A stretch of DNA of 64,000 bases, taken from the NCBI RefSeq assembly GCF_049060185.1, contig NZ_JBMEQO010000002.1, one strand, 5' to 3'. Below are positions 30,893-53,692 of the stretch, in pieces (within the stretch, counting starts at the first letter, position 1; each line of letters begins with the position of its first letter). Origin of the DNA: Nannocystis pusilla (lineage in GTDB: Bacteria; Myxococcota_A; Polyangia; Nannocystales; Nannocystaceae). The notes beneath the pieces were generated by a model. The model was not told the origin of the DNA and ran no database searches. It saw nothing but the letters and a program-made list of their open reading frames with translations. The translations under genes were made by a program, and so were the position numbers.

Positions 30893-31192
30893 AAGAGGTG
30901 TGTTGGGACATGCTGCAAAGGGCATGTCTGAAGGGGCATGTCGTGGCGTGCCGAGGTGCGGACCGGAGGCGGCGCGAGCGAGCGGGGGCCGACCCGGCGG
31001 CGAGCCTCGGAGCAGGACATGCGACGAGGGACATGTCCGAATGGAAAGATTCTGGCGGGCGCGCGGGAGGTCCGGCGGCGAGCGTCGGATCGGTGCAGGC
31101 GGAGAGTGACATGTCCGAATGGACAGCTTCGTGATCGCCGGTCGGGATCGCGCCGGAGCATGTCGAGAGGAACATGTCCGAACAGACATGCA
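30893..31192. promoter_or_regulatory. cluster of 4 copies of palindromic element CATGTCC-N4-GGACATG between gmhB and hldE
   Basis: gggacatgctgcaaagggcatgtctgaaggggcatgtcg; gggacatgtccgaatggaaag; tgacatgtccgaatggacagc; aacatgtccgaacagacatgc. Confidence 0.6.
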
Positions 31193-31235
31193 TCGCGGAG
31201 CGTGCGGTGAGGCGCGGAGAGGGCATCGCGGGCGC

Positions 31236-31820
31236 TCAGGCGAGGGGCGCAGGGTGCTCGTCGTGGTCGCTGCGGGCGGGGTCGCCGACGATCCGGCGGG
31301 CGGCGTCGGCGAGGTCGGCGGCGACGAGGGTGGGCGCGGGGCGGAGCGTCGGGGGCGGCGAGGCGGCGAGCAGGGCGGTGCGGCAACCGGCGCGGCGGCC
31401 GGCCTCGACGTCGCTGGCGATGTCGCCGACCATCCACGAGCGCGCGAGGTCGAGGCCGAGCTCGGCGGCGGCGCGGGTCAGCAGGCCGGGGGCGGGCTTG
31501 CGGCAGCCGCAGACGATCGCGTACTCGGCGACGACGCCGGCGGGCAGGTGCGGGCACCAGTAGAAGCCGTCGAGCTCGAGGCCGAGCAGGTCTTCGATGC
31601 GGGCCTGGACGCCGAGCAGGTCGTGGGCGCCGAACAGGCCGCGGGCGACGCCGGACTGGTTGGTGACGACGACGAGGGCGTAGCCGGCGGCCCGCAGCGA
31701 CCAGGCGCCGTCGCGGGCGCCGCGGGTGAGGCGGACGTGGGCGGGGTCGACGTTGTAGGGGACGTCGTCGATGAGGGTGCCGTCCTTGTCGAGGAAGGCG
31801 GCGGGGCGGAGGCGGGTCAT
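31236..31820 (-). CDS. gmhB: D,D-heptose 1,7-bisphosphate phosphatase (HAD superfamily)
   Basis: AFLDKDGTLIDD is HAD motif I; then VVVTNQSG and CGCRKPAPGLL...WMVGDIASDVEAGRRAGC. Intact. Confidence 0.8.
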   Translation of the reverse strand: MTRLRPAAFLDKDGTLIDDVPYNVDPAHVRLTRGARDGAWSLRAAGYALVVVTNQSGVARGLFGAHDLLGVQARIEDLLGLELDGFYWCPHLPAGVVAEYAIVCGCRKPAPGLLTRAAAELGLDLARSWMVGDIASDVEAGRRAGCRTALLAASPPPTLRPAPTLVAADLADAARRIVGDPARSDHDEHPAPLA

Positions 31821-32554
31821 GGCCAGCTCGTCTCGCGCATCGGCACGACCATCAGCTCGGGGATGACCGACTCGCCGGGCATGGCGAGGAGGAAGCGGAT
31901 GGTCTCGGCGACGTTGCGCGGGTCCTGGAGGTTGGTGATCGGGGTGTCGGGGAAGCGGTCGAGGATGAAGGGGTGCGCATGCCGCCGGCCAGCAGGGCGG
32001 TGACCTTGATGCCGAACGGGCGGCCCTCGACGTGCAGGGCGTGCGACAGGCCCAAAAGGCCCCACTTGCTGGCGTGGTAGGCGCTGGCGTTCTGCCAGGC
32101 CCGCTTGGCGGCGGTCGAGACGATGTTGACGATGTAGCCTCCCCTGGGCGCGCAGGCGCGGGAAGGCGGCGCGGCTGAGGACGAACGGGCCGCGCAGGTT
32201 GACGGCGAGGACGCGGTCGATGTCGTCGACGCTGAGCTCGTCGACCGCGAGCGTCTTGTCGGTGCCGGCGTTGTTGACGAGGACGTCGAGCCGGCCGTGG
32301 CGGGCGACGATGGCGTCGATCAAGGACTGCCCGGCCTCGGCGTCGCGCACGTCGAGCTCGGCGGCCTCGATGCGGCCGCCGAGGTCGCGCACCTCGGCGA
32401 CGAGGCGGGCGAGCGGACCGGACTGGATGTCGGCGGCGATCACGTGCGCGCCGGCGGCCGCGAGGGTGCGACCGATCTCGGCGCCGAGGCCCGAGCCGCC
32501 GCCGGTGACGAGCACGATCTTGTCCGCGAGGGGTGATTCGATCACGAGGGTCAT
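31817..32554 (-). CDS. SDR-family oxidoreductase inside the heptose cluster; 2 frame breaks
   Basis: VLVTGGGSGLGAEIG Rossmann fold; DVLVNNAG; catalytic region HALHVEGRPFGIKVTALLAGGM in the adjacent frame; C-terminal HPFILDRFPDTP. Confidence 0.6.
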   Translation of the reverse strand: MTLVIESPLADKIVLVTGGGSGLGAEIGRTLAAAGAHVIAADIQSGPLARLVAEVRDLGGRIEAAELDVRDAEAGQSLIDAIVARHGRLDVLVNNAGTDKTLAVDELSVDDIDRVLAVNLRGPFVLSRAAFPRLRAQGRLHRQHRLDRRQAGLAERQRLPRQQVGPFGPVARPARRGPPVRHQGHRPAGRRHAHPFILDRFPDTPITNLQDPRNVAETIRFLLAMPGESVIPELMVVPMRETSWP

Positions 32555-32649
32555 CGGTCCTCCGAGTGCGATGATTCGATGCAGGGCCGGAGCCGGTGAG
32601 GCGGGGTGATGCGAACGCGAGGGTCATCGGTCCTCCGAGTGCGATGATT

Positions 32650-33230
32650 TCAGGGCAGCGGGGCCACCCGCGCTTCGACCAGTTCGCAGATCAGGTGCAG
32701 GGCCAATGTGTGGACCTCCTGAATGCGCTGAGTGTCGGGCGAGGGCACGATGAGGGCGCAGTCGGCGAGGTCGCCGGCCTCGCCGCCGGTGCCGCCGAGC
32801 AAGGCGAAGGTGCGCAGGCCGCAGTCGCGCGCGGTCTTGAGGGCGGCGACGACGTTGGCAGAGCGGCCGCTGGTCGAGATGCCGAACACCACGTCGCCGG
32901 GGCGGCCGTAGGCGCGGACCTGGCGGGCGAACACGTCGGCGTAGCCGACGTCGTTGGCCCACGCGGTCAGGACCGCGGTGTCGGCGTTGAGGGCGATGAC
33001 CGGCAAGGCGGCGCGGTCGGGGGCGAGGAAGCGGCCGACGAGCTCGGCGGCGAAGTGCTGGGCGTCGGTGGCGCTGCCACCGTTGCCGCACACGAGGACC
33101 TTGCCGCCGCGGGCGAAGGCGCCGCTGACGAGGTCGGCGGCGCGGACGATGTCGTCGCGCAGACAGGTCTTGGCGCGCGAGAGCACCGCGAGCAGGTCGT
33201 CGAAGCCGCGGTCGACCGCGGCGAAGGCGG
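32650..33230 (-). CDS. gmhA: phosphoheptose isomerase (SIS domain)
   Basis: GGKVLVCGNGGSATDAQHFAAELVGRF, GDVVFGISTSGRSANVV and QEVHTLALHLICELVE. The start is unclear: upstream in this frame there is no ATG, and it may read through from the GT4 gene. Confidence 0.7.
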
Positions 33231-33239
33231 CGGTGGGGG

Positions 33240-34519
33240 CCTGGGCGGGCGCCGGCCGGCGGCCGCGGCGAAGGCGTCGGCCAGGCGGGCGGCGACCTTC
33301 TCCCAGGTGAACAGGGCGTGGACGCGCTGCAGGCCGAGCTGGGCCAGGCGCCGGGCCAGGCGCGGCTGCGACAGCACCAGGGCGAGCTTGTCGGCCAGGG
33401 CGTCGGGGTCGCTCGGCGGGACGAGGTAGCCGGTCTCGCCGTGGGCGACGGTGTGGGCGATGCCGCCGACGTTGGCGCCGATGACCGGGACGCCGCAGGC
33501 CATGGCCTCGAGCGGGGTGATGCCGAACGGCTCGTACCAGGGGGTGCTGACGAACACGTCGGCGGCGACGTAGTAGTCGCGCAGCTCGCCGCGGCCGCGG
33601 CTGCCGACGAAGGTGACGCGGCCCTCGACGCCCTCGTCGCGGGCGACTGCCATCAATCGGCCGATCTCGGGGGTGAGGGCAGGATCGGGCCGGCGCGACT
33701 CGCCGCCGACGACGACGAGCCGCGCCCGCAGCTCGCCCGGGAGCCGCGCGAGCGCGCGGATGACGTTGTCGACGCCCTTGCGCGGGACCATGCGCCCGAG
33801 CTGCAAGACGATGCGGTCGCCGTCGGCGAGGCCGAGCGCGGCGCGGGCCTCGGCGCGACCGCCGGGCCAGAACTCCTCGGGGTCGAAGCCGCACGGGACC
33901 ATGACCAGCTTCTCAGGGTCGGCCGCGTAGAGGGTCATGAGGTCGACCTCGTCCTGCGGGCACTCGGCGACGATCAGGTCGGCCTCGCCGACGACCCGCG
34001 CCTCGATGGCGAAGCGCTCGTCGGGGAAGCCGTCGGCCTGGCCCTGGTGCTGCCGCCGGACCTTGCCGAGCGCGTGGAAGGTGACCGCGAACGGGACGCC
34101 GAGCTCGCGCTTGAGGTCGGCGGCGACGAGGCCGCTCATGAAGAAGTTGGCGTGGGCGAGGTCGTAGCGCTCGCGCCGGGCGTGGGCCGCGACCTCGCGG
34201 GTGAAGGCGGGCATGAGCGGCAATAGCGACTCCTTGGCCAGCGGCGCGGCGGGCCGGCGTCGACCGGGAGCACGCGCACGCCGTCGGCCAGCTCGACGAC
34301 CGGCGGCAAGGTCGGGCTGTCGCGGCGGGTGAACACGTCGACGCGGTGGCCGAGGCGGCCGAGGTGGCGCGCGACCTGGGCGACGTAGACGTTCTGGCCG
34401 CCGCTGTCGCGCCCGCCGAGCGGGGCGAGCGGCGAGGCGTGCTCGCTGATCATGGCGATCCGCAGCGGGCTCTGCGAGTGGCCGACGCCGGCGCCGGTCT
34501 CGAACGGCAGCGGCTTCAC
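33240..34519 (-). CDS. GT4 glycosyltransferase (MshA/SPS-like); 1 frame break near 34250
   Basis: N: RIAMISEHASPLAPLGG...GGQNVYVAQVARHLGRLGHRVDVFTRR. C: YDLAHANFFMSGLVAADL...FVSTPWYEPFGITPLEAMACGVPVIGANVGGIAHTV. GTG start preceded by GGAGG. Confidence 0.65.
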
Positions 34520-34559
34520 GCGGTCCTCCGGGCCGGCTCGGGGCCTGTCCCGCGGGACA

Positions 34560-35575
34560 GGTGGTGACGGGCGGGAGGAGCTGGTCTTCGGGACATCCGG
34601 TGAGCGGCGGTATGACCTGTCCCTCGGGACATCCGGTGACCTCGCCCAGGACCCGCGACCAGTCGGCGGCGAAGCGGCCGATGCCGAACCGCTGGCGGGC
34701 GATCCGGCGGGCGCCGGCGGCCAGCTCGGCGGCCTCGGCGGGGTCGGCGAGCAGGCGCCGCATGTGCGCGATCAGGCGGTCGAGGTCGGTCTCGACGTAG
34801 CCGTTGACGCCGCTCTGCACGGCGGTGCTCATCTCGGTGGTGGCGAGGCCGAGGATCGGCAGGCCGATCATCATCGCCTCGCACACCGCCAGGCCGAGGC
34901 TGGTGTAGCGGATCGGGTTGAAGAAGAAGCGGTAGCGGCCGAGGCGGGCGTGGAGCTCGCGCAGCGGCAGGTCGCCGAGGCCGCCGAGCGCGGCCGAGTC
35001 CATGCCGGCCAGGTCGAGCGGGACGTGGGCGCGCACGCGGTCGAACACGTCGCGGCCGAGCCGACGCCCGCGCCGCGCGAGGTCGTTGACGACGACGATG
35101 CCGCGCGCGAGCTCGCCGCTGTAGGTGGTGTCGTCGGGGACGACGACGCCGTGCTCGACGACCCGCACGGGGTGCGCCCGGCGTCCCACATGAGGGCGTT
35201 GAACGGGGTGACGTGGACGAGCAGGACGTCGGGGTCGTCGACCGGGTGGCGGGTGTCGGTCGGCGACTCGCGCGGCGGATCGTGCTCGAGGTAGACGCGC
35301 GGCAGGCGGCGCTGGGCGGCGCCGAGGATCTCGAACTGGTCGCACTCGTAGTTGCGGCGCGACTGGAACAGGACGACGTCGAACGGCTGCTGCGCGAGGA
35401 GCTCGACCGGGACCTCGTGGACGTTGGCGCCCCAGGCGAAGCTGCCGCTGCGCCCGCCGTAGCCCTCGGGTCGACCTGGCTTTACGGGCAGGTAGAATTC
35501 GTGCGGCGCCTGGGTGAGGTAGTAGAGGTAGCTGCCGTGAACGTGCCAGGTCAGGACGCGGAGTCGTCGCACGAG
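34560..35575 (-). CDS. GT4/GT1 glycosyltransferase; 1 frame break near 35190; stop not identified
   Basis: N: RVLTWHVHGSYLYYLT...FDVVLFQSRRNY...LLVHVTPFNALMW. C: GIVVVNDLARRG...FFFNPIRYTSLGLAVCEAMMIGLPILGLATTEMS...GYVETDLDRLIAH. Probable GTG start. Confidence 0.5.
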
Positions 35576-36049
35576 GGCCTCGCTTTCGCGCTCACAGGGG
35601 CGAGCGCCGCGCTCAGGTCGAGCGCGTCGAGCAGGAGAGGTGACGCCCCGGACCGATGACGCGGGCCGAGGGGGCGGGACGGCCGGGGCGAGCACGCCGC
35701 CGCCGAACTCGCCGGCGAAGCCGGCGCGCACCGGGATGCCGGCGAGATAGGCGAGGTAGGCGACCTCGAAGGCGGTCTCGCCGACGGCCGTAAACACCAG
35801 GGCGGCGTCGAGGCGCGCCGCGGCCAGCCGCTCGACCAGGGTCGAGAGGTGCGGGGCGTCGCACCGCGTCAGGGCGCCGGCAGGCACGACCTGGTCGACG
35901 AAGGCGGCGACGCGACCGGCCGCGCGCGCGTCGGCCAACAGGATCACCATCGCCTGCGGCACCGCGACGCGCAGGCGCACCAGCGCCGGCCCGAGCTCGT
36001 CGCAGCCGGCCGCGGGCAGGACCACGAGCAGCCGGCGAGCGCGGCGGAG

Positions 36050-37146
36050 GGCAAGCCGCGGGTCAAGCACGATCGACCCCGCGAGGAACAGGGCGGCGTC
36101 GGCCTCGGCGAGGATCGCCGCGGCCGTCGGCGGGACCACGCGGGCGTCGACGACGCGGTGACGCACGCGATCGAGGGGCGCCCAGCGGCCCGGCGCGGTG
36201 CTGCGGAAGACGACGACGCTCGGGGTCTGCAGCGCGCTGGCGAGGTGCGAGACGCCGGTGTCGCCGGCGACGACGAGGCGAGCGCGCTCGACCAGGGCGC
36301 CGAGCGAGCCGAGGCCGGTGCGGCCGACCAGATCGACGAGGTCGCGCTCGGCGTGGCGGCGGACCGCGGCGGCGAGGTCGGCCTCGTGGGCGGCGCCGGT
36401 GAGGATCACCGCGAGGCCGCGCGTCACGAGGCCGTCGGCGACTTGCGCGAGGACGCCGGGGTCGACGCGGCGGTGCGGCTCGGCGGCGCCGGGGTGGACG
36501 ACCGCGAACGCGGCGTCGGGCGCGAGGCCGGCGGCCCGCAGCAATGCGTCGCGCTGGTGCGCGTCGCCCGGCGCGAGCGGGAACTCGAGCCGCTCGCCGC
36601 GCGCCTCGATGCCGAGAGCGGCGAGCAAGGCGAGGAGGATCCGCGGCTCCGCGAAGTCATTCGGGTAGAGCACGAAGGTCGCGGGATCGGGGCACGGCTG
36701 CGGCGGGGCGTAGAAGCCGGCGCTGGCGCGCGCGCCAGCAGCTGGACGAAGATGTTGCTGACGAGGCCGTCGCCGTGCATCTGCAGGGCGAGGTCGAAGC
36801 GGCCCTGGACGGCGCGCAGGAAGTCCGGGAGGGCGCGCACGTCGGCGGGGGTCTCGGGCAGGCCGGGGAAGCCGGGGAACTCGAGCAGGTCGTCGACGAG
36901 GTGCGGGTAGCGGGCGACGAGCTCGCGGGCCCGCGCGAGGCCCAGGAGGGTGATCCTGGCCCGCGGCAGCGCGGCTCTCAGGGCCCGCAGCGCCGGAGTG
37001 GCGCACAGGAAGTCGCCGAGGCCCGGCAGGGCGCGCATGACCACGACCTCGCGCGGCGGGCGGAGCTGTCCGCCGATCCGCGCGCGCAGGTCCGGCTCCC
37101 TCGCCGACGAGGCGAGCGCGAACTCCGGTGATACGACTCCGCTCAT
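36050..37146 (-). CDS. GT9 family glycosyltransferase (heptosyltransferase-like); 1 frame break near 36420
   Basis: N: [29 protein letters not shown]: [25 protein letters not shown]...[22 protein letters not shown]. Confidence 0.6.
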
Positions 37147-37191
37147 TGGCGACCTCTGCCCGGCGAACCGCGAATCATCACAGTCGGACGA

Positions 37192-37674
37192 TCACGCGGC
37201 GGCCTCGGGTTCGACCCGTGATTCGAGCGCCTCGAAGGTCTCGGCGAGGGTGCGCGCCTGATCGTCGTCGAGGATGGCCTCGACGGCGGCGAAGATGGTG
37301 CTCTCCTCGAACGCGACGTGATCGGTGACGCTGCGGGTGAGGGCCTCGACCTTCGTCGCCCATTTCGCGTCGTCGGCCCGCATCGCCTCGAGCTCGGCGA
37401 GCTGCTGCCGGACCTGAGCGTGGTCCCGCTCGGCGTCCTTGACCAGCGCCTTGCCCTGCGCGTCCTGCTGGGCGAGGATGTCGTAGAACACGGCCTCCTC
37501 GGCCCGCGCGTGGCGCTCGAGCGCGTCGCGGACCTGGCCGAACAGCTGCTGCCCGCGCGCGACGTCCCGCTCGCGCGACAGCGCGGCGAGCAGCTCCGCG
37601 ACGGCGCGGTGCTGCTCGCGGATCACCTGGTAGATGGTGGGGTCTTGAGCGGTTTCGATCATCGGGCCGTTCAT
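37192..37674 (-). CDS. hemerythrin HHE domain protein (third copy in window)
   Basis: IYQVIREQHRAVAELL, HARAEEAVFYDIL and DHVAFEESTIFAAVE are the H/E metal-binding pattern. Confidence 0.7.
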   Translation of the reverse strand: MNGPMIETAQDPTIYQVIREQHRAVAELLAALSRERDVARGQQLFGQVRDALERHARAEEAVFYDILAQQDAQGKALVKDAERDHAQVRQQLAELEAMRADDAKWATKVEALTRSVTDHVAFEESTIFAAVEAILDDDQARTLAETFEALESRVEPEAAA

Positions 37675-37765
37675 GACACGGTCGATCGGATGGGGCCAGT
37701 CGAATCCCGTCCGATCGGTGCATATCGCGGGGTCGTGTGATTGTCGCCGGCTGCGCCGATTGGGG

Positions 37766-38572
37766 TCAGCGGGGCGGCGACGGGCGAAAACCCTGGTCCG
37801 TCGATTCGGTGACGTCCGCCCGCTCGTCGCCGCTCGCGAGCCGCGCGAGCAGGCCGGCGTGATCGGAGGCCCGGCGCTCGCCGGGCCCGTCGAGGACGAG
37901 CGAGACGTCGCAGAGCCGCGCGGCGAGGTGACGATCGAGCAGCAGATAATCGATGCGTCTGCGCAGGGCGCCGTGCTCGTAAAAGGTGTGGCCCGGGAGG
38001 TCGGGGCGCAGCGCGGCCCAGGCGTCGACGAGGCCGGCGCCCAGCAGGCGGGCGAGCGCGTCGCTGGTGGGGGTCTGGTTGAAGTCGCCGAGGAGGAGCG
38101 TGGGACCGGGGACGGCGGCGAGGTACGCGAGGACCTCGTCGACGTTGTCGCGCGCCTGCGCCTCGGTCCACGACAAATGGGCGCACACGACGTGCAGCGG
38201 GCCGCGCGGCCACGCGAAGACGCCGTGCAGCAGGACGCGGCCCGTCGGGTCGTCGGCGCCGCCGCGGCGGGTCAGCGGGCGGACGTGTACGGCGATCGCG
38301 GGCGCCCGCGAGAGCAAGGCGAGGCCGAGCTCACGGCCGTCTGCGTCCGCCGCGGCGGGGCAGTAGACGACCTCGTAGCCGCCGACGGCGCGCGCGAGCT
38401 GGCTCGCCTGGTCGCTGCCGCCTTCGATCGCCGGGTCGCGCGCGACGGCCTGCAAGGCGACGAGGTCGGGCCGCTGCTCGGCGAGCACGGCGGCGACGAG
38501 CGGCCGGCGTGCGCTCCACGGGCCGTGCCGATCGCCGTGGCCGCCGATGTTGAGGGACAGGATCCGCGTCAT
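37766..38572 (-). CDS. endonuclease/exonuclease/phosphatase (EEP) family protein
   Basis: RILSLNIGGHG, DLVALQAV, LLGDFNQTP and ASDHAGLLARL. Intact. Confidence 0.75.
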   Translation of the reverse strand: MTRILSLNIGGHGDRHGPWSARRPLVAAVLAEQRPDLVALQAVARDPAIEGGSDQASQLARAVGGYEVVYCPAAADADGRELGLALLSRAPAIAVHVRPLTRRGGADDPTGRVLLHGVFAWPRGPLHVVCAHLSWTEAQARDNVDEVLAYLAAVPGPTLLLGDFNQTPTSDALARLLGAGLVDAWAALRPDLPGHTFYEHGALRRRIDYLLLDRHLAARLCDVSLVLDGPGERRASDHAGLLARLASGDERADVTESTDQGFRPSPPR

Positions 38573-38590
38573 GCCCGACAGGGTGATCGA

Positions 38591-40983: not shown

Positions 40984-41340
40984 GCGCAGTATGCGGGTGA
41001 TTCGTGGGCGCGCCAGCGCGGGCTGGCGGGCTCGGCCATGCATGATATGGCCGATCGGACATGTCCTCGAGGCAATCACAACAGGGGGCCGGCGCGGCCG
41101 GGGCGCGCGGGGTTCGATCGGCTCGGCGGAGCAGCCTGCCCGCGGCGCCGGCTCGGGAGGGGTTTTCCCGGCGGTGGCGCAGGCGGCGGACGGGGCGTCT
41201 CCTGCGCCCGGGCCCCCGCATTCCCGGGATGATTCGGCGGGCGGAGTTCCTCCCCGCGCCCGCTGGGCGCCGGGTCGCGCGGCTCGCCATCCGCCGGGGT
41301 CGGCCCCACGGTCAGGCCTGCACGAGGCCCGTGCGCCGCA

Positions 41341-42677: not shown

Positions 42678-42689
42678 GGTCCTGTCGAT

Positions 42690-42735
42690 GAGGACATGCC
42701 CTCGGAGGCATGTTCGAATGGACATGCCCGAAGGT
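42690..42735. repeat. palindromic CATGYYC/GGACATG stem-loop element in a convergent intergenic region
   Basis: gaggacatgccctcggaggcatgttcgaatggacatgccc. Confidence 0.6.
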
Positions 42736-42747
42736 CACGCGCGCGGA

Positions 42748-43917
42748 TCACGGCCTCAGCACGACCTTGATGCAGCCTTCCTTCTTGTGCTGGAAGATGT
42801 CGTAGCCCTTCGGCGCCTCCTCGAGGTGGAGGCGGTGGGTGATGATGAAGGACGGGTCGATCTCGCCGGCGGCGATCCGCTGCAGCAGGGCCGGGGCGTA
42901 GCGGTGGGTGTGGGTCTGGCCCATCTTGAGCGTCAGCCCCTTGTTGAAGGCGGCGCCGAACGGGAAGTGGTCGATGGGGCCGCCGTAGACGCCGGGGACC
43001 GAGACGGTGCCGCCCTTGCGGCAGGCCATGACGGCCTGGCGCAGCGCGGTCGGGCGGTCGGGCTGAAGGCCGACCGCCTGCTTGACCCGGTCGTACCAGA
43101 ACTCGAGGCCGTGGCCGTGCGCCTCCATGCCGACGGCGTCGATGCAGATGTCGGGCCCGCGCCCGCTGGTCAGCTCCTTGAGGACCTCGATGACGTCGGA
43201 CTTCTCGTAGTCGATCGGGGTGGCGTCGCACTTGGTCCGCGCCAGCTCGAGCCGCTCGGGGAAGCGGTCGATGGCGATGACCCGCTTGGCGCCCAGCATG
43301 TGGGCGCTCTTCAGCGCGAACAGGCCGACCGGCCCGCAACCCCACACCGCGACGACGTCGCCCTCCTGGACGTCGCAGACGTCGACCGCCATGAAGCCGG
43401 TGGAGAAGATGTCGCCGATGAAGAGCACCTGCTCGTCGCTGAGGTCGGTCTCGACCTTGACGTGGTTGATGTCGGCGAACGGCACCCGCACGTACTCGGC
43501 CTGGCCGCCCGGATAGCCGCCGAACATGTGCGAAAAGCCGAACAGGCCGGCCGGCGCGGCGCCGAACTGCTTGGTCGCCAGGGCGGCGTTGGGGTTGCTG
43601 CGATCGCACAGCGACCACAGCTGGCGCTTGCAGAAGAAGCAGTCGCCGCAGCTGATGTTGAACGGCACGACCACGCGGTCGCCCTTCTGCACGTCGCGCA
43701 CCTCGCGGCCGACCTCGAGCACTTCGCCCATGAACTCGTGGCCGAGGATGTCGCCCTTCTGCAGCGTCGGAATCAGGCCGTCGTAGAGGTGGAGGTCCGA
43801 GCCGCAGATCGCGCAAGCCGTGACCTTGACGATCATGTCCTTGCCGTCTGCCAGCTGCGGATCGGGGACGGTCTCGACCCGCACATCGCGGGCCCCGTGG
43901 TAGCGCAGTGCTTTCAT
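42748..43917 (-). CDS. zinc-dependent alcohol dehydrogenase family, formaldehyde-dehydrogenase-like
   Basis: [17 protein letters not shown], structural Zn motif [15 protein letters not shown], and [12 protein letters not shown] motif. Intact. Confidence 0.85.
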
Positions 43918-44064
43918 GGGCCGAAGGCATGACTCGAGCGCGGCCTGGACGGTAGGACATCCGGGAATTATCCCATGGCGGACTCGACAGTGAATGCGCA
44001 CCTCCGGGCAACAGGGATGAGTCCGGCGATTCGACGCCGTGCGGGCGAGTGCTATGAGGCGAGC

Positions 44065-44586
44065 ATGTCGCGCGACAACGTCGCAAGGATCCCGGCGTTC
44101 GTCGAAGGCGATGTCCACGCAGTGATCGAGTCGCCGGCCGGCAGTCGCAGCAAGTTCAAGTGGGACCCGGCGCTCGAGACCTTCACCCTTCACAAGGTGC
44201 TGCCGGCCGGGATGGCGTTCCCGCTCGAGTTCGGGTTCATCCCCGGCACCAGGGGCGGCGACGGCGACCCGCTCGACGCGCTCGTGCTCACCGACGAGCC
44301 GACGTTCGCCGGCTGCCTGGTGCGGGCGCGCTTGCTCGGGGTGATGACGGCCGAGCAATCGACCGCCGGCGAGGAGCCGGTCCGCAACGACCGCTTCCTC
44401 GCGGTCAGCGCGGCGTCCCGCACCTACGAGCAATTGCGGCGCGTGCAGGACATCAGCCCGCGCGCGCTGGCCGACCTCGAGCAATTCTTCGTCCATTACA
44501 ACGAGCTCGAGGGCAAGCGCTTCCGCGTGCTCGGCATGCTCGGCCCCGAGGCGGCCCGCTCGCTCGTCGAGGCGGGGCAGAAGTAG
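44065..44586 (+). CDS. ppa: inorganic pyrophosphatase
   Basis: [16 protein letters not shown]..., [10 protein letters not shown]... and [11 protein letters not shown]; about 174 aa. Confidence 0.85.
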
Positions 44587-44590
44587 CGCG

Positions 44591-46062
44591 TCAGGGCGAG
44601 CGGACCAGGCGCGCGGCGGTGTCGAGCAGGCGCCCGAGCTTGACCGGCTTGGGGATCAGGATCGTGCCGGCGGGGGCGCGGGCGGGATCGGAGGTCGACA
44701 CGATCACGGGGATCCGCGCCAGCTCGGGGACGGCCTGCATGGCCTGATAGACCTGACCGCCCTCGAGCAGCGGCATCACCAGGTCGAGGATGACGAGGTC
44801 GGGCTTGACCCGCGCGTGCAGCAATTGGTCGAGCGCGTCGCGCCCGTTGGCCGCGGTCATGGTCGCGTAGCCCTCGCCGGCGAAGGCCTCCCGCAGGCTC
44901 TCGCGGGTCGCGTCGTCGTCGTCGGCGATGAGCACGGTGTGGCCGCGCGACGGGCGATCGGCGCGCGTGGGCTCGGGCGTGGCGCGCGGCAGGCGGAGGG
45001 TGAACACGGTGTCGGTCTCGTCGCTCGAGATCACCGAGACCGTGCCGCCGTGGGCCTGGGCGATCTGCTGGGCGATGTAGAGGCCGAGGCCGAGGCCGCG
45101 GGCGTTGGTGCGCGAGGGCGAGTGGTCGCGGCCGCGGAACGGGTCGAACAGCACCGGCACGAGCTCGGGCGGGATGACGCCGCGGTTGCGGATCTCGACC
45201 GCGATCTGGTGGCCGTCGTCGAACACCCGGATGCCGATCGGGCCGTCCGCGTGGCCGTGCTGGATCGCGTTGCCGATCAGGTTCGACAGCGCCTGGACCA
45301 CGCGGTCGGGATCGCCGGCGGTGACGGTGTCGCCGAGGGTCTCGACCCGGACCTCGCGCTGCGAATGCGTGGTGCGCAGCTCGTCGACGGCGCGCTGCAC
45401 CAGCTCGACGACGTCGACCCGCTGGCGCGCGCGCGAAGCCGAGGCCGCCGGCCAGCCGCGCGCGCGTCAGGTCGAGCAGCTGCTCGATCATCTCGTTCAT
45501 GCGGTGGCTCGAGACGAACATGCGCCGCAAGATGCCGCGCTGGTCGTCGTCGATCACCAGCTGCTCGAGGATCTCGGTGCCGGTCTGGATCGCCGACAGC
45601 GGGGTGCGCAGGTCGTGGCCGAGGATCCCGACGAACATCTCGTTGAGGCGCAGGGCGTGGGTGCAGTCGCGCCGCTGCCGCGACAGCTCGAAGAACACGT
45701 CGGCCTTGCTCCGCAGCACCCGCGGGTCGATCGGCTTGTGCAGGAAGTCGACCGCGCCGGACTCGTAGCCCTGGAACACCCGCTCGCTGTCGCGCGCGCC
45801 GGCGGTGATGAAGATGATCGGCACGTTCTTGGTGCGCTCGGTGCCTCGCATCAATTCGGCCAGCTCGAAGCCGTCCATCCCCGGCATCTGCACGTCGAGG
45901 AAGGCCAGGGCGACGTCGTGGACGAGCAGCAGCTCGAGCGCCTCGAAGCCGCTGCGCGCGGTGAGGATGTTGAGGCCGTCGCGCCGCAGGAGCGCCTCGA
46001 GGGCGATGAGGTTCTGCTCGGTGTCGTCGACGAGGAGGAAGTTGATCGGTTCGAGGTTCATG
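44591..46062 (-). CDS. hybrid histidine kinase REC-HisKA-HATPase_c-REC; 1 frame break near 45420
   Basis: REC1: [18 protein letters not shown]...[14 protein letters not shown]-box: [15 protein letters not shown]. ATPase: [12 protein letters not shown]...[21 protein letters not shown]2: [14 protein letters not shown]...[10 protein letters not shown]. Confidence 0.75.
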
Positions 46063-46074
46063 TCGCCTCCCCGG

Positions 46075-46652
46075 AGCGCGTGGGCGCGGCGAGCCGCGCG
46101 AGCAAGGTGCCGATGGCGGCCGCCGGCACGGCGTGGTCGATGGCGACCTGCCGCAGCGCGGCCGCCGGCATGGTCGGGACCGCGGCGGTGGCCGGCGATT
46201 CGACGATCGTGAGGCCGCCGGCCTCGGCGATGCGCGAAAGGCCGCGGGCGCCGTCCTCGTTGGCGCCGCTGAGCAGGACGCCGGCGAGGTGCGGCCGAAG
46301 GCGTCGGCGGCCGACTCGAACAGCACGTCGATCGAGGGCCGCGAGAACAGCACGGGGCGGTCGACCGAGAGCGAGAAGCTGCGCCCGCGCTCGACGAGCA
46401 GGTGGTAGTTCGGCGGGGCGACGTAGACGGTGCCGGGCACGATGGGCTCCTTGTCGTCGGGCTCCCGCGTCGGCAGCGAGGCCTTCGTGCGCAGGACCTC
46501 GACGAGGTGGCTGGGCTGGGTCGGCGGCAGGTGCAGGACCACGGCCAGCGGCAGCGGATAGCCCGCCGGCAGCGCCGGCAGCAAGGCGGCGAGGCGTCGA
46601 GCGCCCCCGACGAGCCGCCGATCACGATCATGTGAATGTCGCGCGTCGCCAT
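46075..46652 (-). CDS. CheB-type methylesterase catalytic domain; 2 or more frame breaks
   Basis: IVIGGSSGALDA, then in the adjacent frame LPAGYPLPLAVVLHLPPTQPSHLVEVL...PNYHLLVERG...DVLFESAADAFG. Confidence 0.55.
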
Positions 46653-46655
46653 GGT

Positions 46656-47470
46656 CTACCGCCGTTGATAGATCCGGTCCTCGGGGACGAGCTCGGTGAA
46701 CGCCTCGGCGTGCGACGAGAACCGCAGGGTCTCCTTGGCGCCCAGGCCGAGGAAGCCCTTGCGCCGCACCGAGTCGCGCAAGACGCCGATCGCCCGGTTC
46801 TGCAGCGGGCGGTCGAAGTAGATCAGGACGTTGCGACACGACACCAGCTCGACCTCGGCGAAGGCGACGTCGGTGGCGAGGCTGTGATCGGAGAACAGGA
46901 TCGACTGCTTGAGCCGACGGTCGAGGATCGCCGAGGCGTACTGCGCGGTGTAGAAGTCGGACAGCGAGCCGCGTCCGCCGGCCTGGCGGTAGCTGTCGGA
47001 GAAGCGGGCGAAGCGCTCGAGGTCGTAGACGCCGGCCTCGGCGGCGCGCAGGCTCTCGGGGTGGATGTCGGTGGCGTAGATCAGGGTGCGGTCGAGCAGG
47101 CCCTCCTCGGCGAACACGATGGCGAGCGAGTAGGCCTCCTCGCCGGTGGCGCAGCCGGCGACCCACACCTTGAGCGAGGGATAAGTGCGCAGGTACGGCA
47201 CGACGCGCTCGCGGATCGATCGATAATACGAGGGTCGCGGAACAGGTCGCTGACCTGGACGGTGAGGAAGCGGAGCAGCTCGCTGAAGCCGCGCGGCTCG
47301 GCGAGCACGCGCTCGCGCAGCTCGCCGAGCGAGGGGCAGCGGAGGTGGGTCAGGGCGGCGCCGATCCGCCGGCGCAGCGAGGCCTCGGCGTAGCCGCGGA
47401 AGTCGTAGTGATAGCGGTGGTAGACCGCGTCGAGCAGCGCGCTCAACTCGGGGTCGGGCGCAGTCGTCAT
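46656..47470 (-). CDS. CheR-type methyltransferase; 1 frame break near 47220
   Basis: N: LLDAVYHRYHYDFRGYAEASLRRRI...FLTVQVSDLFRDP. C: LKVWVAGCATGEEAYSLAIVFAE...LVSCRNVLIYFD. Confidence 0.7.
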
Positions 47471-50400
47471 TTGGGCATCCACACCCGCGCCAGCGACAGC
47501 AGCTTGTCGACGTCGAGCGGCTTGGCGATGTAGTCGTTGGCGCCGGCGGCGAGGCAGCTGGCGCGATCGTCGGCCATGGCCTTGGCGGTGAGGGCGATGA
47601 TCGGGATCTTGGCGGTCGCCGGGTCGGCGCGGATCGCCCGCGTGGCGGTGAGGCCGTCCATCTCCGGCATCATCAGGTCCATCAAGATCAAGTCGACGCC
47701 CGGCTTGAGTTTCAGGTGCTGCAGCGCCTCCTTGCCGTTGCGCGCGATCTCCACCTTGGCCCCGCGCGGCTCGAGCACGCTGGTCAAGGCGAACACGTTG
47801 CGGACGTCGTCCTCGACGACGAGCACGCGCCGACCCTCGAACACGGCGTCGCGGTGGCGAGCGTCCCGCAGCATGCGCTGTCGCTCTGGCGGGAGGCTGG
47901 TCTCGACCTGGTGGAGGAACAGGGTGACCTCGTCGAGCAGCCGCTCCGGCGAGCGCGCGCCCTTGATGATGATGGACTGCGAGAAGCGCCCGAGCTCCTG
48001 CTCCTCGGCCCGGCTGATCGCCCGGCCGGTGTAGACGATGACGGGCGGGAACCCGTACTGGTCGCCCTGGGCCATCTCCCGCAAGAGTTCAGAACCTGAC
48101 CTGTCGGGCAGGCTGAGGTCGAGGACCATGCAGTCGAAGGTGGTGGTGCGCAACGCGCGGAGAGCGTCGGCGGCGGTGCCGACCGGCACTGTCTCGACGT
48201 CGTCGGCCGCGAGCAGCTTGCAGGTGCTCTCGCGGTGGACGACGTCGTCCTCGACGACGAGGACGCGCCGCAGCGACTGGGTGGCCTTCGACTCGAGCCG
48301 CCGCAGGGCCGCGACCAACTGATCGCGGACGACGGGCTTGATGGCGTAGGCGACCGCGCCCATCTCGAGCGCGGTGCGGGTGTGGTCGCTGGCGGAGATG
48401 ACGTGGACCGGGATGTGCCGGGTCGCGGGGTCGTGCTTGAGCGCGTCGAGGACGCTGAGGCCGGAGCGGTCGGGCAGGAGACGTCGAGGACGATGGCGCT
48501 CGGCCGCTGCTGACGCGCGAGCGCCAGGCCCTCCTCGGCGGTGTCGGCCAGGAGGGGTGGAAGTCGAGCTCGCGCGCGAGGCCGGCGAGGATGCCGGCGA
48601 ACGCAGGGTCGTCCTCGACGACGAGGATCGAGCGCGCGGCGGCCGGCGGCTGGGGCGGGGGCGGCGGCGCGGGGAGGCGACGCAAGGGGGGATGGGCGCC
48701 GGCGGTGGCAAGGGCGCGAGGGTCGGCGCCGGGTCCGAGCCGCGGGCGACGAGCTGCGCGGGGATGGTGAGGGTGAAGGTGCTTCCGCGGCCGACGACGC
48801 TGGCGACGGTGAGGTCGCCGCCGAGCAGGCGCGCGAGGTCGCGTGAGATCGAGAGACCGAGGCCGGTGCCGCCGTACTTGCGGTTGGTCGTGCCGTCGGC
48901 CTGGCGGAACGCTTCGAAGATCAGCTCCTGCTGATCGGGCGGGATGCCGATGCCGGTGTCGGTGACGTCGAAGGCGACCGCGCCGGCCCCGGCGGCGCGC
49001 ACCGTGAGCTTGACGCCGCCCTGCTCGGTGAACTTGAGCGCGTTCGACAGCAGGTTGCGCAGGATCTGCGACAGCCGCGTCGGATCGGTCTGGAGCGCGC
49101 CCGGGACGTCGCGCTGGACGTCGAGGTCGAGGGCGAGCCGGCGATCGCGGGCGACCGGGCGGAAGGTCGACATCATCTGGTCGGTGACGCGCGCCAGCGA
49201 GATGGTCTCGGGCCGGACGTCGAGCATGCCGGCCTCGATCTTCGACAGGTCGAGGATGTCGTTGATGAGGGTGAGGAGGTCGTTGCCGGCGGAGTAGATG
49301 GTCTCGGCGAACTTGACCTGCTCGGCGTCGAGGTTGCCCGGGCGGTTGTCGGCCAGCAGCCGGGCGAGGATCAGCGAGCTGTTGAGCGGGGTGCGCAGCT
49401 CGTGGGACATGTTGGCGAGGAACTCGGACTTGAAGGTGGAGGTCCGCTTGAGCTGGATCTGCGCCTGCGTGAGGGTGTCGCGCTCGGCCTGCAGCGCCTG
49501 CGTCTGCTCCTCGAGGTGGGCGTTGATCTGCTCGAGCTCGGCCTGCTGATTGCCGAGGCGCGCCCGCGACTCCTCGAGCGCGCGGGTCTGCTGCTCGAGC
49601 TCCTCGTTCTGCACCCGCAGCTCTTCTTGTTGGGTCTGCAACTCCTCGGCCTGACGCTGGGTCTCCTCCAGCAGGGCGGCGAGCCGCTCCTTCTGCTCGG
49701 AGCTGCGGACCGCGAGCGCGACGGTCTCGCCGATCCGCTCGAGCAAGGCGCGCACGCGCGGCTCGGCCGGGCGCAGGAAGCCGAGCTCGAGCACTGCGAT
49801 GGTGACGCCGTCGACCCGCGCGGGCAGCACGAGCACGTGGGCGGGGAGGCGCTCGCTGGTGCCGGTGCGCAGGGGCAGCTCGTCGGCGTCGCGCAGCTCG
49901 ACGACCTGGCCGCCGGCGGCGGCGCGGCCGATGACGCCCTCGCCGGCGGCGAACGTCTCCGGCCCGGCGACCCGCGAGTCGAGCGCGAGGCCGACGCGCC
50001 GCACCCAGTCGCCGCCGTCGCGCACGAAGAAGGCGCCGACGTCGGCGCCGGCGTGGGCGGCGAGCGCGGCCAGGCAGTCGTGGCCGACCTGCACGGTGCT
50101 CTTCTCGCCCTGCACGACCTCGGCGACGCGCGTGTGACCCTCGCGGATCCAGGCCTCGGCCTCGAGCGCGGCGCGGGCCTGCTGCTCGGCGTCGAGGGCG
50201 GTGCCGAAGGTGCTGGCGATCGAGGCGAGCTGGCGCCGCGAGAGGAAGGCGAGCAGGAGGGCGACGCCGGCGAGCAGCGCGACGAAGGCGGTCCGCGCGA
50301 TCGCGGTCGAGCGCTCCGAGGCGACGGCGCGCGCGCAGCAGGTCCTTCTCGATGTCGGTGGCCACGGCCATGGCGTCGCGGATGTCGTCCATCCGGGCCT

Positions 50401-50844
50401 TGCGCGCGAGCATGGCGGCGGGGCTGCGCGCCTGGTCGAGGTCGTGACCGGTCAGCGCGGCCTCGCAGGTGGCGTACCACTCGCGGTAGTGCTGGTGGGC
50501 CTGATCGAACTGAGCCTGCTGCGAGGGGCTGTCGGCGACGAGCTCGTGCAGGCGCTCGAACTTGCCGTCCGGGTGCGCCCGCTCGAACGGCCCCAGGTAC
50601 TGGCGATCGCCGGTGAGCAGGAAGCCGCGCAGCGCGGTCTCCTGATCGACGATCTCGAGCATCGTCGCGTTGGCCTGCGACAGGACCTCGTTGCTGTGGT
50701 TGACCCAGGCGGCGTCGTCCGCCATCAGGAGGATCTGCCGGCCGAGGACGACGCCGAGCAGCAACAGGAGGGCGATCGGCGTGGCGATGGCGACGGTGAG
50801 CCGCTTGGTGAGCGACGTGCGCTGCTCGTCCCTGGTGAGGTTCA
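47467..50844 (-). CDS. hybrid sensor kinase CHASE3 - coiled coil/GAF - HisKA - HATPase_c - REC x3, about 1125 aa; 3 or more frame breaks
   Basis: TM + CHASE3: [19 protein letters not shown]...[28 protein letters not shown] heptad coiled coil: [21 protein letters not shown]-box: [11 protein letters not shown]. ATPase: [11 protein letters not shown]...[10 protein letters not shown]. Three D-containing receivers, the last DLMMPEMDG. Confidence 0.75.
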
Positions 50845-51345
50845 CCCGATGCTCCTTGTGTCCGCGGTGTCCGAGGCGCCCCCGCCGGCCGATGGCCGCT
50901 GCGCGGCGAACCCCGACGAGCGTGTGGCCGGGCCCGGCCGCCCCAGCCCGTGAGGTCCCATGATTCGCACGAATGGTGATTCGTGGCGGGGCGCGCAGGG
51001 GGCCGAGCAGGTCGCGGCGGGTGATCTTTCGCATGACGCGTATCAGGGGTCGCTGCGACGATCGATGTCTCCCCTGCGGGCCAGGCGATACCCCCGTCTC
51101 CACGCCCGCGTCCCCGGCAGAACGGCGCCGAGGCCGAGGGGAGAAGGTCGATACGGCCGAGCCCGCTGCGGCGTGATTCGTACGAGCGGGCTGCGTCATG
51201 CGCGCAAGCGGTGGGAATGGCGAACGAGCCGCCGAAATCGACGGCGCGACGAGGGCCGTCAGCGAGCACCTGCGCCGTTTCGTGGCGCTAGTCGGGCGAG
51301 CGCGCGGTGCAACCACGATCAAACTGGTGGGCGGAGAAACCGACC

Positions 51346-51552
51346 ATGAACCGCGATCAAATTCAGGGGAAGTGGGAGCAGCTCAAGGGCAAGGCGAAGC
51401 AGTTCTGGGGGAACCTGACCGACGACGATTTCCTCAAGGCCGAAGGCAACGCCGACAAGCTGTGCGGGATCATTCAGGAGCGCTCGGGCGAGCGCCGCGA
51501 AGAGATCGAGCGCAAGCTGGGCTACAAGGCCGAAAACAACAGCAACCTGTGA
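51346..51552 (+). CDS. CsbD-family general stress protein of about 68 aa
   Basis: [58 protein letters not shown]. Confidence 0.75.
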
Positions 51553-51899
51553 CGAATGTCGGCGCTCCGCGCCGCTCTGCGATGCGATTCGGCGCGCCTG
51601 CAGGTCCGTGACCTGCAGGCGCGCCGAACCCTTTGCGCCGCGAACGATCCTCCGGCGCTGCGGCCGCCCCGCCCGCCGCGTGCGTGACCCGCAGCGGGTG
51701 ACGCGAATGCGCGGGCGGTTCAGGGCGCCGCCCATTCATGCTACCGCCCGGAGGTCCTGGCGGTGGTCGAGGCATTTCGGGGCGCGCGTCACCGGTCGAC
51801 GGCGCTCGATCGACAGCGAGCCGATGGGCCGCACGAGCGAGCGCGCGTCGGTACGAGGCGCATGTTCCATGGGGCATGTTGCGAAGGACAGGTCCGCGC

Positions 51900-53376
51900 T
51901 GCGGCGGGCTCGTCGTTCAGGTGCCCGGAGGCACATCATCGCCGGGTCGAGGTGTTCGGGGCTGTACTCGCCCTGGCAGAACTCGCCGTAGTGCTCCCAC
52001 TGCATGTTCTCGTCGTCGATGTAGACGGTGTTGGCGGGGTCGAACGAGAAGGGGCACAGGTCGACCACGTCGCCGAGGCCGTCGAAGTCCTGGTCCGACT
52101 GCGGCATCAGGCAGGCGCTCGCCCACAAGGTGGCGAGGTCGACGGTGCCGTTCAGCGGCTGGCCCTCCTGGGCGCAGCCGGGCGGGAGTTGGACGACGCC
52201 CGGTTGGGCGAGGACCTTGGGGGTCAGTGGCACCGTGGCGCCGTCGGGATCGAGGGTGGTGCCGGCGGGGTGGAGGCGGACGCAGCAATAGCCGTTGGCG
52301 CTGAGGTCGTAGAAGCCGATCCGGCGCGGGTCGGGGACGAGGTCGGCGTCCGGCGTGGTCTCGCAGTTGAAGCCGACGAAGTCGGCGTCCTGGTCGTTGT
52401 CCTCCGATTGGCCCATCTGGACCTGCTGCGGGTTGCCGACGAAGGGGCAGGTGTCGCAGATGTCGCCGACGGTGTCGCCGTCGTGGTCGGCGTGGCCGCA
52501 CTGGCCCTGGACGCACGTGCTGGCCGCAGGGCAGTCGGCGTCGACGTCGCACGCCTGCGGGGGCACGGGCTGGCGCGGGCAGCCGTCGTCCCCGTTGCGC
52601 AGGCCGTCCTGGTCGAAATCGTCGTCGAGGCCGAAGCCGACCGGGCCGGCGGCGCCCGGCAGCATGGTGCCGGCGCAGGCGTCGCCGACGAGGTCCTTGT
52701 CGGCGTCGATCTGGCAGTCGTCGCCGTCGAAGGCGATCGGGTCGCCGAGCTCGTAGGGGTCGAGGCCCTCGCCGTAGTCGCCGCAATTGGGGGTGCGCAC
52801 GCAATTGTCGCAGGCGTCGCCGATGCCGTCGCGATCGCTGTCGGCGGTGCTCGGGATGTTGCGCACCTTCAGGCGCTCGGGGATCGGAGCGTCGGTGTCG
52901 TTGTAGTGCGCGGCCGCCTTTGCGCACAGGTCGCAGGCGTTGCCGATGCCGTCCTTGTCGCTGTCGGCCTTGGGCTCGCCGACCGGGAGGGTGGGGCACA
53001 GGTCGGCGACGTCGCCGAAGCCGTCGCCGTCGACGTCCGACTGGTCAGGGTTGAAGTAATCGGGGGCGTTGTCGCAGTGCCACATCACGCCGTCGCGATC
53101 CAGGTCCAGCTTGCAGTCGGTGACCGGACCGTCGCAGCTCGGCAGCGGCTCGTCGCCGGTGGTGTCGGTGGTGGTCAGGTCGGTGGTCGTGCTCGCGCCG
53201 GAGGTCGATTCGGCGGGGCCGGTGTCGGCGCCGGTGCTGCCGGGATCGACGGTGCCGCCAGGGTCGGTGGCGCCGTCGGTGTCGAAGGGGTCGAGCTCGG
53301 CGGGCTTGCAAGCGCCCAGGACGAGGAGCACGGCGCCGAGCAGGTGGCGCGGTTGGCGGAGGTGAGGGCGAATCAT
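51900..53376 (-). CDS. secreted lipoprotein with multiple thrombospondin type-3-like Ca-binding repeats; true 3' end uncertain
   Basis: Lipobox signal MIRPHLRQPRHLLGAVLLVLGACKP, a T/S/G-rich linker, then repeated DxDxDGxxDxCD units. The ORF reads on to 51736 through a CATG palindrome. Confidence 0.55.
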
Positions 53377-53665
53377 GATGCTGCAGTCGTGTGAGCCGAT
53401 CGCGACGGCTCACCGATCTTGCGGCCGTGCGCGCGAACGATCGGACGGGCTTCGGACACGGCGGGGCGAGCGAGCGGGAAGCCGGCCGGCGAGGAACTCC
53501 CGCTCGCGGCGCGATCCGAGGAGGTGCGTGGGGCCTCGGGCGCTCGCGGGTGCGGGCGCTCGGAAACTCACGATCGCCGGAGGGCTGATATGGGGCTTCG
53601 AGGACCCGATCGAGTCGAGCCCGCGGCCCGCGGCGTCGCTGCGCGGACCGAAGATCGGATTGATA

Positions 53666-53692
53666 GGACATGCCTGAACGGACATGTTCAAA
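53666..53692. promoter_or_regulatory. palindromic GGACATG element in a divergent promoter region
   Basis: taggacatgcctgaacggacatgttcaaa lies between the TSP3 lipoprotein start and the (AAEPAK)6 lipoprotein start. Confidence 0.5.

Follow-up and report, generated by a model that had tools for sequence, protein, structure and literature searches.

Phased arrays of a 10-bp palindromic core mark gene ends in Nannocystis and apparently form an undescribed repeat family

Genomes of Nannocystis carry arrays of a 10-bp palindromic core that are repeated head-to-tail at an exact 14-bp period and are positioned at the 3' ends of genes; judged by sequence comparison, they apparently constitute a Nannocystis-specific repeat family that has not been described. 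We characterized these arrays starting from a 64,000-nucleotide stretch of the Nannocystis pusilla genome (contig NZ_JBMEQO010000002.1, assembly GCF_049060185.1; hereafter the window). A sequence-only reading of the window had proposed a dispersed palindromic element, CATGTCC-N4-GGACATG, at nine or more sites. The element is real and occurs far above background; the window contains eight sites of the family, namely, seven arrays (A-D and G-I) and one single core, and two of the items originally listed are not members. The explanation that we tentatively favor, at somewhat short of even chances, is a gene-end element akin to sequences of the repetitive extragenic palindromic (REP) type and to the mycobacterial TRITs, which would be transcribed into bidirectional hairpins of the 3' untranslated region (UTR) and additionally recognized by a factor reading each core.

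Anatomy, abundance and distribution of the arrays

The heptamer GGACATG occurs 21 times in the window against 5.9 +/- 2.1 expected, and none of 100 dinucleotide-preserving shuffles reached this count; the background frequency that would have dismissed the element is thus far exceeded. Among the 207 CATG sites of the window, an exact center-to-center spacing of 14 bp recurs nine times and any other spacing about once, and the two-unit pattern RRCATGYY-N6-RRCATGYY was found six times versus 0.00 expected (no two-unit match in 100 shuffles). The repeat unit consists of a palindromic core, RRRCATGYYY (consensus GGACATGTCC), and a free 4-nt spacer, with two to seven units per array. Core positions 1-3 are G, G, and A (or G), positions 8-10 are T (or C), C, and C, and the central CATG is the sole invariant tetranucleotide; GCATGC cores are scarce (55 observed, 90 expected). 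The spacers are AT-richer than the genome, do not pair with one another, and are unrelated between units (3.5% of neighboring spacers are identical, 1% expected) as well as between loci, and no 32-mer spanning two spacers was found to be common to non-orthologous loci. Because the spacers are unrelated at both levels, the arrays have no master copy. Copy-and-paste between loci was rejected given the lack of common 32-mers, and slippage of 14- or 28-bp units was mostly rejected as the origin of the arrays given the rarity of identical neighboring spacers. Since a palindromic 10-bp core recurs at a 14-bp period, the originally proposed CATGTCC-N4-GGACATG is a by-product; the 18-mer inverted repeat was rejected as the unit given that the phasing runs over up to seven cores and that the spacers are neither paired nor conserved. 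Arrays were defined by intact CATG chains, so that degenerate units are under-counted.

The purine bias of the spacers tracks the local GC skew, which is why the spacers in the window all read GAA on the plus strand. Assignment of an orientation to the arrays from these GAA spacers was rejected, as the local skew accounts for them and the spacers are strand-symmetric relative to transcription. The skew itself is strong in Nannocystis loci (+/-0.10-0.15) and common to genes of both strands (r = 0.81); genes are slightly commoner on the C-rich strand, and third codon positions favor C over G and T over A.

In Nannocystis loci totaling 0.98 Mb, CATG sites are spaced 14, 28, 42, and 56 bp apart in 585, 345, 211, and 91 cases, respectively, compared to about 15 cases for other spacings (12 and 18 for 13 and 15 bp), and 271 strict arrays of two to seven units were identified. 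Most of these loci were collected for containing an array, a bias that was corrected for in the analysis of intergenic shares described below, although not in every analysis. The unselected sequence, that is, the window together with loci L001-L004 (148 kb), contains 19 strict arrays, which extrapolates to about 1,400 or more arrays per genome.

A collection of genomes from 185,579 species was scanned with a three-unit pattern that specified only the cores and the register, and at least 120 stretches matched. Among the matches listed, 109 of 120 come from Nannocystis (N. exedens, N. pusilla, N. punicea, N. bainbridge, N. radixulma, RBIL2, and metagenome-assembled genomes [MAGs]) or a Nannocystaceae MAG; the other 11 are mostly either simple microsatellites of 14-bp period, whose spacers are identical, or matches by chance. 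Hence, the element is found across Nannocystis loci and is not restricted to the window, the other outcome that would have undone the sequence-only reading; the taxonomic boundary drawn from these at least 120 stretches is approximate. In two more distant relatives (alcohol dehydrogenase [ADH] identity of 70-74%, 72-73% GC), no arrays were detected in the 21 kb and 12 kb examined. Two high-GC MAGs labeled as Actinomycetota contain one Nannocystis-like array each, with three to four units and variable spacers (L039, 7252-7300, and L092, 7139-7200); the MAGs may be mis-binned, the matches may be due to chance, or the family may be more widely distributed. No Rfam family matches the arrays at the gathering threshold, and in the searchable literature, we found neither a description of the family, every match for GGACATGTCC concerning p53, nor a paper linking REP elements to myxobacteria, in agreement with the initial remark that no known family fits.

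Position at gene ends and the hairpin and duplex readings

Genes were called with a codon-usage model trained on Nannocystis loci, which reproduces the deposited annotation of L001. By these calls, the array is a gene-end element, not a promoter element: 104 arrays are located in convergent, 105 in tandem, and 12 in divergent regions, and 25 are genic. With the ascertained regions removed, a phased pair is carried by 44% of the convergent, 14% of the tandem, and 7% of the divergent intergenic regions, and by 20 of 795 genes (2.5%). The corresponding densities per kb are 2.6, 0.63, and 0.19, compared to 0.026 in coding sequence, so that the convergent intergenic density is about 100-fold above coding and 14-fold above divergent. 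In tandem regions, the array starts at a median of 24 nt past the upstream stop codon and ends at a median of 202 nt before the next start, and arrays most commonly begin 0-20 nt from the stop codon. This survey of positional enrichment, covering about 1 Mb of Nannocystis DNA, bears out the view that the element is not a single promoter motif and counters the suggestion of a widely used operator. An operator through which a global transcription factor acts from the promoters of the flanking genes is extremely unlikely: a single conserved core in the divergent promoter region of a short-chain dehydrogenase/reductase (SDR) gene and a histidine kinase gene (41057-41066) and the location of array I in a divergent region are in its favor, but the paucity of arrays in divergent regions, their location directly past stop codons and far from the next start, and their extrapolated number per genome, far too large for a regulon, all argue against it. 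Sigma-54, extracytoplasmic function (ECF) promoter, Spo0A-box, and CRP-like readings were dropped on spacing and position. A DNA uptake sequence (DUS/USS), an over-represented 9-12-mer that is frequent in genes and terminators alike, was rejected given how few genes contain phased pairs.

Canonical terminators, defined as a hairpin followed by a T-run, occur at chance level in the window, and the terminator scan reported none of the window arrays. The arrays are AT-richer in their stems than the genome (60% versus 74% GC). Under the tentatively favored hairpin reading, the arrays would be transcribed as the start of the 3' UTR, directly past the stop codons, and short hairpins would arise by pairing between neighboring cores, with a loop of 4 nt and a stem at most 10 bp long. 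Because the core is its own reverse complement, the same structures would form on the transcripts of either strand, and one array could delimit the two genes of a convergent pair alike, by either halting read-through or shielding the 3' end from exonucleases, as Escherichia coli REP/BIME elements do and as has been proposed for the mycobacterial TRITs. A putative sequence-specific factor would additionally read each core, given that the energetics of hairpins by themselves would require neither an invariant CATG nor an exact 14-bp register; such strictness of the register implies a specific reader.

Several lines of evidence tie the cores to the direction of transcription. Mismatches in the inter-core stems of tandem regions, read on the sense strand, comprise 246 G.U and 146 A.C; this excess of G.U is significant in a per-array sign test (p = 0.006), whereas the convergent-region control is not significant. 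The G-C bias of the cores withstands regression on the local GC skew (t = 4.1, p = 8.6e-5) and is absent from the spacers. By pair counting, 80.9% of the stem cells are paired in the sense and 76.8% in the antisense orientation, and the sense RNA is predicted to fold more stably than the antisense (p = 0.011). The best junction of each array has 8.02 paired positions on average versus 7.54 +/- 0.06 in core-shuffled arrays, and 12.1% of the best junctions are perfect, compared to 3.4% in the shuffled arrays. In the 70 nt past stop codons, the mean fold z-score, obtained with approximate shuffles, is -3.5 with arrays and -0.6 without arrays, and is +0.07 in promoter-side controls. The z-scores of the window arrays themselves are modest, from -4.75 to +0.4.

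The modest folding of the window arrays is one of several observations that weigh against the hairpin reading. Covariation is weak: partner-shuffled pairing amounts to 80.2 +/- 0.6%, and 53 of 500 shuffles reach the observed value, while the covariation score, reached by 30 of 500 partner shuffles, is marginal; most of the pairing potential therefore merely reflects the palindromic consensus. Compensatory CCTG...CAGG doubles were rejected as proof of hairpins because CCTG/CAGG variant cores cluster equally often in direct and inverted orientation, direct CCTG...CCTG doubles being about as frequent. The 14-bp spacing is about 30-fold commoner than 13 or 15 bp, although loops of 3-8 nt would fold equally well, and even numbers of units are not preferred in the 0.98 Mb of Nannocystis loci. 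No U-tract follows the arrays, the T fraction in the 30 nt downstream, in the sense orientation, being at most 0.22. Two of the eight window sites are in divergent regions, and array A ends 31 bp before the start of hldE. The approximate nature of the shuffles behind the 3'-end z-scores also counts here, as does the reliance of the gene positions on our own gene caller, checked only against L001.

The main rival, which we consider possible but rather unlikely, is that the arrays act as duplex DNA. Each core would bind a dimer of a putative Nannocystis protein, and the dimers would touch at the 14-bp step, a rotation of 480 degrees that would place every third site on the same face, three units spanning 42 bp or four turns. 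The resulting filament could act as a roadblock or insulator of transcription, offer a site to gyrase or another topoisomerase, or help structure the chromosome. This alternative best accounts for the register, which is exact over up to seven units (98 bp) with almost no 13- or 15-bp steps. The 10-bp palindrome with its invariant center and graded flanks resembles a classic dimer site; the depletion of GCATGC looks as if a binding-energy threshold applied; and the free spacers, the weak covariation, the conservation of the cores relative to the spacers, and the conservation of an isolated promoter-region core in four genomes (three species) are all compatible with protein binding. A symmetric dimer, however, does not predict a core-confined, skew-independent G/U bias tied to the direction of transcription, more stable folding of the sense strand, or the excess of perfectly complementary neighboring cores. 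In addition, the analysis yielded no candidate protein, and among 785 predicted proteins, enrichment beside the arrays was seen for no gene family.

Turnover of the arrays and comparison with known elements

Comparison of the window with the syntenic loci of relatives (L001-L003) revealed rapid turnover around conserved cores. At the site of array G, all four genomes have an array, of two to four units with strongly diverged spacers, beside a nearly identical ADH coding sequence. Across orthologous pairs, identity is 0.89 at third codon positions, 0.88 at CATG, 0.67 in the core flanks, and 0.60 in the spacers, shifts in the unit register probably adding to the apparent divergence of the spacers; the difference between CATG and spacers indicates that the cores are maintained while the rest turns over fast. 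Array H is present in the window and in L002 but absent in L001. Arrays A-D are located in a 351-bp insert between gmhB and hldE that is bracketed on both sides by copies of a 14-bp direct repeat, GAGCGCCCGCGATG: in the sense orientation, the right-hand copy (30873-30886) carries the hldE start codon, and the left-hand copy (31224-31237) abuts the gmhB stop codon. At the same junction, the insert of N. punicea (L128) measures 524 bp, consists of repeats of about 100 bp, each with an array, and is flanked on both sides by that species' variant of the 14-mer, GAGCGACCGCGATG, whereas in a more distant N. pusilla genome (L129), the insert is lacking and gmhB overlaps hldE. The length of the bracketing repeat equals the array period (14 bp), and this repeat may represent a target duplication, gene conversion, or coincidence. 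Overall, gain, amplification, and loss of arrays take place within short times, as they do for REP elements and bacterial interspersed mosaic elements (BIMEs).

Such turnover fits a further alternative that we regard as quite improbable, that is, selfish or neutral DNA seeded by a RAYT-like or other nuclease or by template switching at palindromes, which would accumulate at 3' ends only since insertions there do the least harm. The presence or absence of array H between strains that are about 95% identical, the insert carrying arrays A-D with its 14-bp direct repeat and its lack in L129, the approximately 100-bp higher-order repeat of N. punicea, spacer divergence about fourfold faster than that of third codon positions, and the same positional bias of REP and REPIN sequences are all consistent with it. 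Against this origin, the lack of a master copy means that copy-and-paste of an element does not spread the arrays, the conservation of CATG relative to the spacers shows constraint on the cores, and the sense-strand bias indicates selection. Furthermore, no transposase-like or other gene family recurs near the arrays among the 785 predicted proteins, which cover about 1% of each genome and leave a RAYT encoded elsewhere unsearched.

TRIT (Tuberculosis Rho-independent terminator motif) of Mycobacterium is the closest analogue of the arrays, and the REP/BIME elements of Escherichia coli seem closest in function. TRIT has been described as a genus-restricted, conserved palindrome at gene ends that acts bidirectionally and for which the authors inferred a binding factor (Gardner et al. 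2011; PMC3152330). Like the arrays, TRIT is confined to one genus, is a palindrome conserved in sequence, occurs at gene termini in a high-GC genome poor in canonical terminators, and is bidirectional. Unlike them, it consists of one longer stem-loop, present about 147 times per genome, centered near -8 relative to the stop codon and overlapping the coding sequence, whereas the arrays are lattices of two to seven cores with a 14-bp period that start at +0 to +20 and are roughly ten times more abundant. The two have no sequence similarity, TRIT being set apart by its published description; the arrays match no Rfam family at the gathering threshold, though Rfam may hold no TRIT model.

REP, BIME, and REPIN sequences of Enterobacteria and Pseudomonas, which are associated with RAYT (Y1) transposases, resemble the arrays in being abundant extragenic palindromes that are clustered, located between convergent genes or after stop codons, and variable among strains. 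As abundant extragenic palindromes with stem-loop potential, the arrays stand out by their density, about 100-fold above coding, 81% pairing, and the 3'-end z-score of -3.5. The 3'-UTR hairpins of REP elements attenuate read-through and stabilize the upstream mRNA, as those proposed for the arrays would, and E. coli REP325 is both a terminator and an mRNA stabilizer (bioRxiv 10.64898/2026.03.23.713779). REP elements, however, are 20-40 nt long with a GTAG foot, their whole copies are alike, deriving from a master copy, and the linkers of BIMEs are of defined types; in the arrays, only the 10-bp core is conserved, the spacers are random, the register is exact, and there is no GTAG. A GTAG/CTAC hairpin foot was not seen at the arrays, the flanks of which are G/A- or C/T-rich, and the spacers being independent, the arrays show no whole-element similarity to a master sequence. 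Of the initial REP/MITE-like label, the REP part is therefore apt, the elements being abundant, extragenic, palindromic, and located at gene ends across the genus. The MITE part, for miniature inverted-repeat transposable element, was rejected, as there are no terminal inverted repeats distinct from the cores, no defined length (two to seven units), and no master copy; the sole 14-bp flanking direct repeat brackets the composite 351-bp insert, not an array. Intrinsic terminators are similar to the arrays in that a hairpin-forming sequence lies a few to a few tens of nt past the stop codon and can act bidirectionally between convergent genes. The arrays differ from them in lacking a U-tract, having AT-richer stems, and conserving the stem sequence itself.

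The met-boxes of MetJ are 8-bp palindromes in two to five tandem copies that are bound cooperatively by a small dimeric repressor. They are comparable to the arrays as short palindromes arranged head-to-tail in exact register with only the unit conserved, but they abut without a spacer in the promoters of a small regulon, whereas the arrays number in the thousands, have a 14-bp period, and occupy gene 3' ends. The p53 half-site RRRCWWGYYY has a consensus identical to that of the array core, which we take as a coincidence of sequence; we know of no p53-like DNA-binding domain in bacteria, although we made no search for one. The family is distinguished by its lattice, in which a 10-bp core is strictly phased and the spacers are free. 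Its mode of evolution differs from that of REP/REPIN populations in that core and register alone are preserved and there is no master copy.

The ending of transcription units in bacteria that have few hairpin-plus-U terminators is an open problem that the mycobacterial TRITs posed in 2011, and the arrays offer a tractable case, the motif being short, invariant, easily mutated, and present at about 44% of convergent junctions. A bolder and unlikely version of events is a dedicated punctuation system, in which a lineage-specific protein would read the 14-bp-phased lattice of GGACATGTCC on DNA or on the nascent RNA duplex and would end or insulate transcription bidirectionally, with arrays made in place rather than copied. 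If true, such a system would replace the intrinsic terminators that are largely lacking in these genomes of 72% GC and 11-13 Mb. In the annotation of Nannocystis genomes, the arrays serve as markers of gene ends and of genuine stop codons; they also flag indel errors in long-read assemblies and are candidates for insulators when biosynthetic gene clusters of myxobacteria are engineered.

Sites and other features of the window

Pfam scans of the window identify a heptose/lipopolysaccharide gene cluster followed by two-component-system genes; a search for proteins identical to the gmhB product of the window gave no match. The four copies first reported between gmhB and hldE correspond to the four arrays A-D (30906-31193), which were located by the 14-bp CATG spacing and a position weight matrix (PWM), except for array C, which was found by the PWM. 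Array A (30906-30943), the end of which lies upstream of the hldE start codon (30875, minus strand), consists of three phased cores, GGACATGCTG, GGGCATGTCT, and GGGCATGTCG. Array B (31015-31052) has two intact cores, GGACATGCGA and GGACATGTCC, and an in-register degenerate core, GGAAAGATTC; for its two intact cores, the sense RNA has a predicted fold of -11.7 kcal/mol (z = -4.75). Array C (31107-31130) combines an intact core, TGACATGTCC, with an in-register degenerate one, GGACAGCTTC, and array D (31156-31193), with the three phased cores GAGCATGTCG, GAACATGTCC, and AGACATGCAT, begins 42 bp past the gmhB stop codon (31236, minus strand).

The single core (41043-41080 with its surroundings; PWM) is a perfect GGACATGTCC at 41057-41066, as noticed initially, with degenerate in-register neighbors, TGATATGGCC and GGCAATCACA. 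It is located in the divergent region between the SDR gene (minus strand) and a GAF domain histidine kinase gene (plus strand), and the core and its flanks are kept in L001, L002, and L003, unlike the fast-evolving arrays. The site is atypical of the family in both its position and its single core, and this lone core might be a true operator, recognized by the putative core-reading factor.

The three remaining sites of the initial list that proved to be members, near 42690-42735, 51860-51895, and 53666-53692, are arrays delineated by the 14-bp CATG spacing. Array G (42678-42729; a degenerate core, GGTCCTGTCG, and three intact cores, GGACATGCCC, AGGCATGTTC, and GGACATGCCC) occupies the 70-bp gap between the convergent stop codons of a histidine kinase gene (42677) and a Zn-ADH gene (42748). 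The protein encoded by the latter (42748-43917) shares 98% identity with its counterpart in Nannocystis sp. ILAH1, 97% with that in N. pusilla, and 93% with that in N. punicea. Array H (51858-51895; two intact cores, GCGCATGTTC and GGGCATGTTG, and a degenerate core, GGACAGGTCC) lies in the convergent region common to the genes for CsbD and a 492-aa TSP_3-repeat protein. Its seeming location inside an open reading frame (ORF) results only from a homopolymer indel in the window (CCC to CC, 51900-51925). Once this is corrected, the 492-aa gene stops at 51918, and the array lies downstream of it, the distance from the stop codon being 22 nt for the degenerate outer core and 36 nt for the intact cores. 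The same convergent region includes a conventional-looking hairpin, the GC-rich inverted repeat GGCGCGCCTGCAGGTC-CGT-GACCTGCAGGCGCGCC (51591-51626, plus strand), about 40 nt past the CsbD stop codon and kept in L001 and L002. Array I (53666-53689; cores GGACATGCCT and GGACATGTTC) is in a divergent region upstream of a TSP_3-repeat protein gene, with an identical junction in L002.

Several genes that are intact in relatives are split between frames in the window, which makes its ORF-based readings unreliable: besides 51900-51925, where the one-base homopolymer loss resembles a long-read assembly error, these are 30372-30576 (hldE) and, for hybrid kinases, 44591-46652 and 47467-51322.

Two sequences included in the initial reading do not belong to the family. 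The supposed two copies at 34590-34640 are part of a coding 36-bp repeat without CATG (34544-34641), which matches L001 19243-19340, within an annotated glycosyltransferase gene, and was rejected as a member. This 12-codon repeat is near the 3' end of a GT1-family glycosyltransferase gene in the window, in L001, and in L002 (19247-19354), and the annotated product varies in length by strain (328, 352, and 434 aa). It holds a CCTGTCC-N4-GGACAGG palindrome, similar to the CCTG/CAGG variant cores of arrays elsewhere. The 51-bp tandem repeat (28057-28308), suggested to be related, was likewise rejected; it has only CATG in common with the arrays, a different period, and no copies elsewhere.

The latter is one of many unrelated intergenic tandem repeats with periods of 21-164 bp, the others being at 3696-4116, 5987-6214, 8871-9042, 15963-16555, 18569-18959, and 32534-32649, in long stretches without a called gene. 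All are confined to their own site, none recurring in about 1 Mb of other Nannocystis loci, and several contain GATTCG, which is present also near 40985 and 41245. The sole Rfam match in the window is an nhaA-I RNA riboswitch (RF03057) at 61174-61224 on the plus strand (51.6 bits; gathering threshold, 37).

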